From positions 1 through 10,374 of IMG/VR virus record IMGVR_UViG_2778261513_000006: DNA of 10,374 nt, one strand, 5' to 3'. The first letter of the stretch is position 1; each line of letters starts with the position of its first letter. The DNA comes from a virus. Taxonomy: Duplodnaviria > Heunggongvirae > Uroviricota > Caudoviricetes. The translations under genes and the position numbers were made by a program. Under the pieces are notes generated by a model. The model was given only the letters and a program-made list of their open reading frames with translations, did not search any database and was not told the origin of the DNA. Shown here in pieces: positions 5,705 through 5,742 of this stretch.

Positions 5705-5742
5705 GCTGGCGGGAGTTGAACCCGCGTCCGAAATTCCTACAT
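5705..5742 (-). other. Prophage attachment-site core: 38-bp fragment matching the tRNA-like 3' region (T-arm plus start of acceptor strand) of tmRNA gene ssrA
   Basis: The - strand reads ATGTAGGAATTTCGGACGCGGGTTCAACTCCCGCCAGC. It contains a canonical T-arm (GCGGG-TTCAACT-CCCGC) and, as I recall it, matches the region just before the ...CUCCACCA 3' end of enterobacterial tmRNA. Both flanks diverge from ssrA, so this is an isolated core copy, not an intact gene. The integrase lies about 1.7 kb to the right and is transcribed toward it. Confidence 0.6.

Follow-up and report, generated by a model that had tools for sequence, protein, structure and literature searches.

The 38-nucleotide stretch at positions 5705-5742 of the DNA analysed here (hereafter the window, meaning the whole stretch of 10,374 nucleotides) is very probably the ssrA-identical core at the int-proximal, ssrA-distal junction of a Fels-2/186-like Peduoviridae prophage, and represents a displaced host ssrA end that had been scarred previously. 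In the ssrA literature, the int-proximal, ssrA-distal junction is referred to as attR. The window is a segment of the Escherichia coli chromosome, in which ypjCB, a pinH remnant, a disrupted ypjA and the ssrA fragment are followed by the switch region of the phage. Published work already covers the phenomenon as well as this scar allele and this phage family, and the structure is an ordinary junction at a classic site; modestly new are the combination of a Fels-2-type phage with a 5-nt scar in E. coli, the persistence of the scar through turnover of the occupant, and the population counts.

The identity of the core can be read directly from the window. On the minus strand, from 5742 to 5705, its letters are ATGTAGGAATTTCGGACGCGGGTTCAACTCCCGCCAGC, which agree at 38 of 38 positions with nt 319-356 of E. 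coli K-12 ssrA, and the ssrA genes of Ecol_AZ147 (AZ147) and BEN5202 are also identical to it. The perfect T-arm that the initial annotation had recognised within a 38-nt ssrA 3' region, GCGGG-TTCAACT-CCCGC at 5725 to 5709 on the minus strand, is thereby confirmed. The match is far above chance, with no occurrence of the 38-mer in 100 shuffled versions of a related locus. The Rfam tmRNA model scored 25.6 bits against a gathering score of 47 (E = 3e-7), with an alignment that is credible over the 3' ~45 model positions only, and ARAGORN reported zero tRNAs and zero tmRNAs in the window. Because the Rfam match covers only the 3' part and ARAGORN was negative, the 38-mer is a fragment of ssrA and the window contains no tmRNA gene, in agreement with its earlier description as an att core copy rather than a gene; no full-length tmRNA, which would have an acceptor stem paired between its 5' and 3' ends, a reading frame for the tag and a terminal CCA, was found in the window. 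The idea that the relic is transcribed as a tRNA-like RNA was considered and rejected, as upstream promoter-like hexamers are no commoner than chance (two at 5755-5783 on the minus strand, against 1.0 ± 1.0 expected).

On the phage side, the core is followed by an AT-rich int-side att arm (5743-5871, minus strand) carrying two exact repeats 11 nt apart, TTGGCGGCA at 5837-5845 and TTGGCGACA at 5848-5856, both on the minus strand; both agree with tgccGCCActt, the consensus given for 186-type arm sites by Nilsson and Haggard-Ljungquist (PMC3448106), and are predicted to bind the integrase. The minus strand then encodes a GapS1-family anti-phage protein of 513 aa and the PD-(D/E)xK type, a cargo gene between att and int (5872-7413; NCBIfam NF047931, 401.6 bits against a cut-off of 320), a Fels-2/186-type tyrosine integrase of 339 aa (7407-8426; Pfam Int_N and Phage_integrase), and a CI repressor (8430-9068; Pfam Phage_CI_repr and Phage_CI_C). 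On the plus strand are located an Apl/Cox-like excisionase-regulator of 80 aa (9179-9421), assigned from its position and from annotation in relatives and matching no model in Pfam or NCBIfam, and the phage early operon with cII (9454-9963) and fil (9454-10171 for the two together; Pfam Phage_CP76 and Phage_186_Fil). The gene order int-cI-apl-cII-fil is that of the switch module of Fels-2/186-like Peduoviridae, and the phage DNA shows 81-94% identity with Peduoviridae of Escherichia, Salmonella and Klebsiella, including Fels-2, with 86% DNA identity to Fels-2 over the int-cI region.

The function of the core as an attachment site is supported by the free phage Cartapus, whose integrase shares 95% amino-acid identity with that of the window and whose attP contains the same 38-bp block. 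The Cartapus attP reads ...AAAATGGT, then ATGTAGGAATTTCGGACGCGGGTTCAACTCCCGCCAGCTCCACCA, then AATAAATCAAGGGGTTACGTGAAAGCGTAGCCCCTTTTT..., in a layout where ...AATGGT is joined to ATGTAGG...CCAGCTCCACCA and this in turn to the AATAAATCAAGGGG hairpin, with the core there continuing into TCCACCA. It thus comprises a 45-46-bp copy of the ssrA 3' end together with a terminator hairpin, neighboured on one side by an int-adjacent cargo gene and on the other by a 160-aa ORF next to ogr; in the Fels-2 record, attP is annotated in split form as 24+23 nt. A core equal to the 3' end of the target gene, the same core in the attP of a phage with a closely similar integrase, and an adjacent integrase gene with arm-type repeats are what characterise an attachment junction, and the earlier proposal that the core marks the boundary of an ssrA-targeting prophage is upheld by the Cartapus attP and by the prophage ends of relatives. 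For annotation, the gain is a left prophage boundary fixed to the base, at 5742/5743.

The window ends within the early region of the prophage, before the other junction, and the evidence on the other end was taken from AZ147 and BEN5202, the only two complete genomes in which the same GapS1-int prophage occurs. In AZ147, where the prophage is internally deleted, an intact ssrA with the AATAAATCAAGGGG arm is located 9 kb to the right, and in BEN5202, which has a complete P2-type prophage including the structural module, the corresponding distance is 34.7 kb; the second core copy joined to an intact ssrA that had been expected to the right is therefore seen in both relatives. As to the origin of this arrangement, comparison of the junctions shows that the copy of the ssrA 3' end in attP is recombined with ssrA by the phage tyrosine integrase (7407-8426), after which ssrA ends in phage-supplied sequence and the host's old 3' end is displaced to the far side of the prophage, where it is the copy in the window. 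The implication is that the phage at present supplies the functional 3' end and the terminator of the host tmRNA gene.

The outer side of the core required a revision of the initial annotation, in which both flanks were described as diverging at once and the outer flank was regarded as foreign to ssrA. The first description is correct in that CAGC is followed by CAATCATGATTGG on the 3' side and that AT-rich phage DNA lies on the 5' side, but the next two bases, CA (5703-5704, minus strand), are also ssrA-derived and correspond in the junction comparison to nt 362-363 of its terminus. Between 5704 and 5705, TCCAC (nt 357-361) is deleted, and the ssrA-derived stretch is accordingly 5703-5742 with an internal 5-nt deletion rather than a clean 38-bp block. 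Beyond it extends a conserved ssrA-downstream flank of 117 nt (5586-5702, minus strand), which is contiguous with ssrA in other genomes and opens with the palindrome CCAATCATGATTGG.

When the junctions are tabulated, GCCAGC is followed in the window by CA and then ATCATGATTGG, and the distal copy in UTI89 has the same form; AZ147, beside the same phage, and psaA of K-12, at the right end of CP4-57, both have GCCAGC, CCACCA and then ATCATGATTGG. In BEN5202, again beside the same phage, GCCAGC is followed by TCCACCA and then ATCATGATTGGACGG, an intact distal copy in which TCCACCA adjoins ATCATGATTGG, so that ATCATGATTGG stands directly after an intact ...CCAGCTCCACCA. The flank is in register at every junction tabulated, and the window is short of TCCAC only. 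The distal allele of the window, CGCCAGC-----CA in register with the native flank, is listed in Table 1 of PMC10107115, where it is credited to Williams 2003 and where its tabulated occupants are OI-108 (EDL933), Eco48X (RS218) and Stm27X (Salmonella LT2); CGCCAGC-CCACCA is given as the scar of CP4-57 (PMC10107115, Table 1).

A live ssrA with an exact junction to the ATCATGATTGG flank is present in at least 1,703 E. coli genomes. Under looser criteria, ssrA is contiguous with the flank in 2,533 genomes, a number that is confounded as a count of empty sites by UTI89-type prophages, which bring their own copy of the flank beside ssrA; in UTI89, too, the flank directly adjoins ssrA, and because such prophages carry the flank, contiguity is no proof of an unoccupied site. 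Evidence for unoccupied sites was taken instead from WB61, in which smpB, ssrA, the flank and ypjA follow one another with no insertion, from rows with ssrA and ypjA under one 351-nt match, and from the exact-junction count. The extent of the match was also tried as an indicator of occupant type and discarded as uninformative, its ranking being driven by SNPs in the flank. The supposed foreignness of the outer flank is thus not borne out, since at least 1,703 genomes have CA joined to ATCATGATTGG directly after a live ssrA and only TCCAC is missing, and the comparison shows the outer flank to be ordinary E. coli sequence downstream of ssrA.

Two further elements of this region can be described. 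The sequence CCAATCATGATTGG at 5691-5704 is a perfect 14-nt palindrome whose first bases are shared with the CCA end of ssrA, and it is kept whole in the 5-nt-scar, 1-nt-scar and intact alleles; it might serve as a signal for processing or as the target of a recombinase. At 5552-5575, in the interval separating the ypjA stop codon from the flank, the minus strand reads as a GC-rich hairpin, GCCCACAGATGTGGGC, and then TTTTT. BEN5202 and UTI89 have a hairpin homologous to this one, in which the changes in the stem compensate each other; the hairpin at 5552-5575 is absent from the output of a consensus scan. Judged by its form and position, it probably functions as a bidirectional terminator for transcripts in the ssrA direction and from ypjA.

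A second, degenerate relic of the ssrA terminus is located at 1531-1544 on the minus strand, where comparison gives CCGCCAGCTCAACA against CCGCCAGCTCCACCA; the corresponding form in K-12 and AZ147 is GCCAGCCCACCA, and the lesions differ, with TCAACA in the window and CCACCA in K-12 and AZ147. In its context, from 1544 to 1531, ...CACCAATTCAGACA precedes CCGCCAGCTCAACA, which is followed by AATAAATCAAGGGGTTACGTGAAAGCGTAGCCCCTTTTTCTTTGGTAGTGGCAGCAAAATGG. The adjoining 1469-1530 (minus strand) is a relic of a Fels-2-type ogr-side att arm beginning AATAAATCAAGGGG..., identified by alignment with the Cartapus attP, the left end of Fels-2 and the ssrA junction of BEN5202; the match extends over ~62 nt (1530-1469) and takes in the terminator hairpin that the phage supplies to ssrA, together with an arm-type site in degenerate form. 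An Rfam match to BjrC68 at 1488-1535 is a false positive due to this phage-arm terminator hairpin. On the other side of the relic, CACCAATTCAGACA (1545-1558, minus strand) resembles, over a short match, the right-end arm of CP4-57 (in K-12, CAACCAATTCAGACT), and its assignment as a CP4-57-like arm is tentative.

The window therefore contains two copies of the ssrA terminus, at 5703-5742 and 1531-1544, on the same strand and with foreign DNA between them, which is the arrangement of a tandem array. Because it is enclosed by two ssrA termini, the block from ypjA to the pinH fragment (pinH') appears to be an old island, most plausibly one that has decayed inside an ancient array. The array is a fixed part of the backbone in most non-B2 E. 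coli rather than a live neighbour; in UTI89, which is without the ypjA-pinH' block, the distal flank runs directly into glaH. The earlier suggestion of a tandem array next to the prophage consequently stands in part: an older array is real, as the second relic at 1531-1544 demonstrates, but its segment is fixed backbone in most E. coli rather than a neighbouring live element, and the argument from a foreign flank was wrong.

These observations also bear on an alternative explanation of the junction, according to which CAATCATGATTGG... belongs, as an att arm, to some other element that targets ssrA and adjoins the prophage (with an expected attP of ...CAGCCAATCATG), whose att copy was used by the phage. 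The ypjA-pinH' segment, bounded by the second ssrA relic with its mobile-element arms and so probably the remnant of an ancient island, lends this explanation some credit, as do the flank copy that UTI89-type prophages carry beside ssrA, which indicates that the flank can travel with elements, and the occurrence of this phage in a tandem array in BEN5202. It is nevertheless unlikely. In BEN5202, which has the same phage, this flank comes after an intact TCCACCA, and in the 1,703 or more genomes counted it comes after live ssrA; in WB61, ssrA, flank and ypjA are contiguous with no element between them. The window departs from the intact junction by the loss of exactly 5 nt, the flank keeping its register, and the ypjA side of the window contains a pinH fragment only, with no integrase or other mobility gene.

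The interpretation of the distal copy as a displaced, previously scarred host end is supported by comparisons in which backbone and phage can be followed separately. Positions 1-5704 of the window differ from EC1722-1 at one of 5,704 bases; EC1722-1 shares both the 5-nt scar and the ypjA deletion with the window, but there the site is occupied by a P4-like satellite, which carries sid, psu, delta, primase and P4-type integrase genes. Positions 5743-10374, in turn, differ from the AZ147 prophage at one of 4,632 bases, and the backbone of AZ147, which differs from K-12 at four of 7,032 positions, carries the 1-nt scar of K-12. The phage of BEN5202 shows 12 differences from that of the window in 4,384 bases and is inserted in a UTI89-type array, beside the intact terminus that UTI89 has at ssrA. 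On the strength of these three comparisons (window with EC1722-1, AZ147 with K-12, BEN5202 with UTI89), the scar tracks the backbone and not the phage; they show the distal copy to be in the state that the recipient chromosome already had, and they constitute clean evidence that scars outlast the turnover of occupants.

The likely maker of the scar can be narrowed down from its position. In copies left by P4-type elements, identity with ssrA begins at about GCCAGC (...TTCAGACTCC GCCAGC in K-12 and ...TTCAAACTCC GCCAGC in EC1722-1), and both scars begin at T357, the next base after GCCAGC, which lies some 38 bp away from the point where the Fels-2-type identity block starts on its 5' side. P4-type integrases reportedly damage their own attachment sites, a statement ascribed to Williams 2003. 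Since the scars start where P4-type identity starts, an earlier P4-type occupant is suggested as the scar maker, and the scar is probably older than the phage and the work of an earlier element with a P4-type integrase, an attribution based on co-occurrence in two strain pairs and on a citation of Williams 2003.

The deletion might otherwise have been made by the phage's own integrase at or after integration, or have arisen by random mutation of a neutral relic. The presence of the same phage beside intact, 1-nt-scar and 5-nt-scar termini can be read as decay after integration, and a P2-family phage is found next to a 1-nt scar in Shewanella putrefaciens (PMC10107115, Table 1). Such an origin is highly improbable, however, as the scar states match near-identical backbones that carry a P4-type element (window with EC1722-1, AZ147 with K-12), as both scars start at T357 rather than near the 5' edge of the Fels-2-type block, and as the P2-type elements Fels-2, SopE-phi and SpaX are tabulated with intact copies (PMC10107115).

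Two routes to a host end scarred before the phage became its neighbour can be envisaged. In route (a), a P4-type element would have excised and left a scarred live ssrA of the kind present in WB61, whose terminus would then have been repaired by integration of the phage; in route (b), the phage would have entered next to ssrA, giving an array of the kind present in BEN5202, and a P4-type element would later have excised from the second position. Intermediates of both routes are known, namely WB61 for (a) and the tandem array of BEN5202 for (b). A further scheme, in which the phage integrated at a secondary site into an existing scarred relic, with another island between the prophage and the live ssrA, is given only a very slight probability: the 38-bp core of a scarred relic might do as attB and the right-hand end of the prophage lies beyond the window, but live ssrA directly adjoins the far end of the prophage in each of the two sequenced relatives, and relics of P4-type elements retain only ~11-16 nt of ssrA-like sequence, far below the 38-bp core, and for that reason would be poor targets for integration.

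If the displaced and previously scarred end is read correctly, the excision of the prophage would have a cost. Precise excision by Int and Apl, if the crossover fell within the 38 bp, would fuse the body of ssrA to the scarred end, giving ...CCAGCCAAUCAUG; the predicted attB would be ...CCAGCCAATCATG upon transfer of the scar and the intact ...CAGCTCCACCA without it. The scarred tmRNA would be left with four of seven acceptor-stem pairs, its 3' half being truncated, and would have neither the G3-U357 pair that specifies alanine identity nor a CCA end in register, so that the cell would then be reliant on ArfA for ribosome rescue. Deletion of T357 alone abolishes trans-translation and shifts rescue to ArfA (PMC10107115), other introduced scar mutations gave the same loss in the work of Onodera et al. 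(PMC10107115), and the same behaviour is known for CP4So in Shewanella (PMC5148205). By analogy, excision in the present case is inferred to move the scar into ssrA and to inactivate tmRNA; strand exchange 3' of position 356, or a need for the deleted bases, could mean that excision is blocked instead.

The frequency of such scars was determined in 5,426 complete E. coli genomes, with 34-mers able to seed only across the junction. The 5-nt scar was found in 576 genomes, the 1-nt (T357) scar in 626 and the intact junction in 2,303 (each of 5,426). Scars at distal copies thus occur in ~1,200 genomes, against two genomes with a scarred live ssrA: WB61, the only one with the 5-nt scar, and the laboratory strain DTU-1, the only one with the T357 deletion. 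The junction of the window itself has no exact match among complete E. coli genomes, the best being seven other genomes in which a Fels-2-type phage is paired with the 5-nt scar, with one mismatch each. From the ratio of ~1,200 distal to two live scars, transfer of the scar appears to be strongly counter-selected, and the scar would therefore stabilise the occupant; the counts in this way support an older proposal that damage to the att site stabilises the occupant of the site.

WB61 (NZ_CP020025.1), a wild isolate from a roadside hawk, has an unoccupied live ssrA with the 5-nt scar (locus 8695-9068) and is a natural genome with exactly the predicted excision product. An ARAGORN fit to its ssrA requires the 5' end to be shifted 48 nt upstream. 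The strain is presumably tmRNA-defective and reliant on ArfA, although its scarred live ssrA may be an assembly error.

A broader reading, put forward here with considerable reserve, is that scarred distal copies act at the population level as a lock on ssrA and that Fels-2-like phages act as a patch that restores tmRNA upon lysogeny. Two strain pairs with a common backbone and scar and different occupants, the genome of WB61, and the ~1,200 distal against two live scars fit with it. Were it true, ~22% of E. coli would be unable to lose the ssrA occupant without killing tmRNA, and since loss would kill tmRNA, occupants would be swapped instead; the full 46-bp terminus of the phage, with its terminator, would repair a scarred ssrA by route (a), and lysogeny would be directly beneficial.

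[quoted passage not shown] With Fels-2, the window phage shares the int-cI-apl-cII-fil module, at the 86% DNA identity already given, the location of int at the ssrA-distal end, and an ogr-side arm that supplies the ssrA terminus and terminator hairpin. In contrast to the window copy with its 5-nt scar, however, the distal copy of Fels-2 and SopE-phi is intact (CGCCAGCTCCACCA; PMC10107115), and in place of the 1.5-kb GapS1 gene between att and int, Fels-2 has no gene, its int lying ~118 nt after a 24-nt att segment. The resemblance to CP4-57 and psaA of K-12 consists in a displaced ssrA 3' fragment, a small deletion from T357 and the same ATCATGATTGG flank, and for CP4-57 and CP4So of Shewanella the outcome of excision is dead tmRNA and a switch to ArfA (PMC10107115; PMC5148205), a consequence that has been demonstrated by experiment for CP4-57 and is predicted for the window. 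Those two, however, are elements with a P4-type integrase, a short identity block and a 1-nt scar, whereas in the window the site is held by a P2-family phage, 38 bp of the core are retained and the scar measures 5 nt.

The att damage associated with OI-108, Eco48X and Stm27X is the identical CGCCAGC-----CA allele, and this allele was confirmed on the same flank in UTI89 and in O157:H7 genomes. The integrases of these three listed occupants are P4-type, CTX-phi-type or unclassified, unlike that of the Fels-2-type phage in the window. With the window, a P2-family phage in E. coli joins the ssrA occupants that lie beside a scarred terminus.

Several observations on the surroundings may be added. 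In UTI89, the 43-kb ssrA prophage has copies of the ~117-nt flank and terminator on both sides (1032-1160 and 44140-44310 of the examined locus), of which the ssrA-proximal one is identical to the flank common in E. coli, the distal one having diverged and carrying the 5-nt scar; some elements, by this comparison, evidently carry a host-like terminator module in the att arm. On the backbone side of the window, ypjCB (1-1374, plus strand) is one intact ORF of 457 aa with DUF5507 and DUF5508; in K-12, ypjC and ypjB are separate, and in AZ147 ypjCB has an internal stop. The ypjA gene (2158-5542, plus strand), which encodes an autotransporter adhesin, has lost 1,310 bp from its interior in comparison with K-12 and AZ147, with the deletion junction near 5057-5066, and a frameshift leaves the ORFs 2158-5187 and 5216-5542, the latter containing only the C-terminal beta-barrel part; the ypjA lesion is annotated in EC1722-1 as well.

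The slot between att and int is variable. The GapS1 gene occurs at the ssrA locus in 2 of the 5,426 complete E. coli genomes, and other ssrA-located Fels-2-like prophages have in common with the window only the part at 5560-5865, after which the cargo is different. Elsewhere, the slot is occupied by a RES-domain gene (Cartapus), by dCTP deaminase, HNH or hypothetical genes (E. coli strains), or by no gene (Fels-2), and it looks like a variable hotspot for defence genes.
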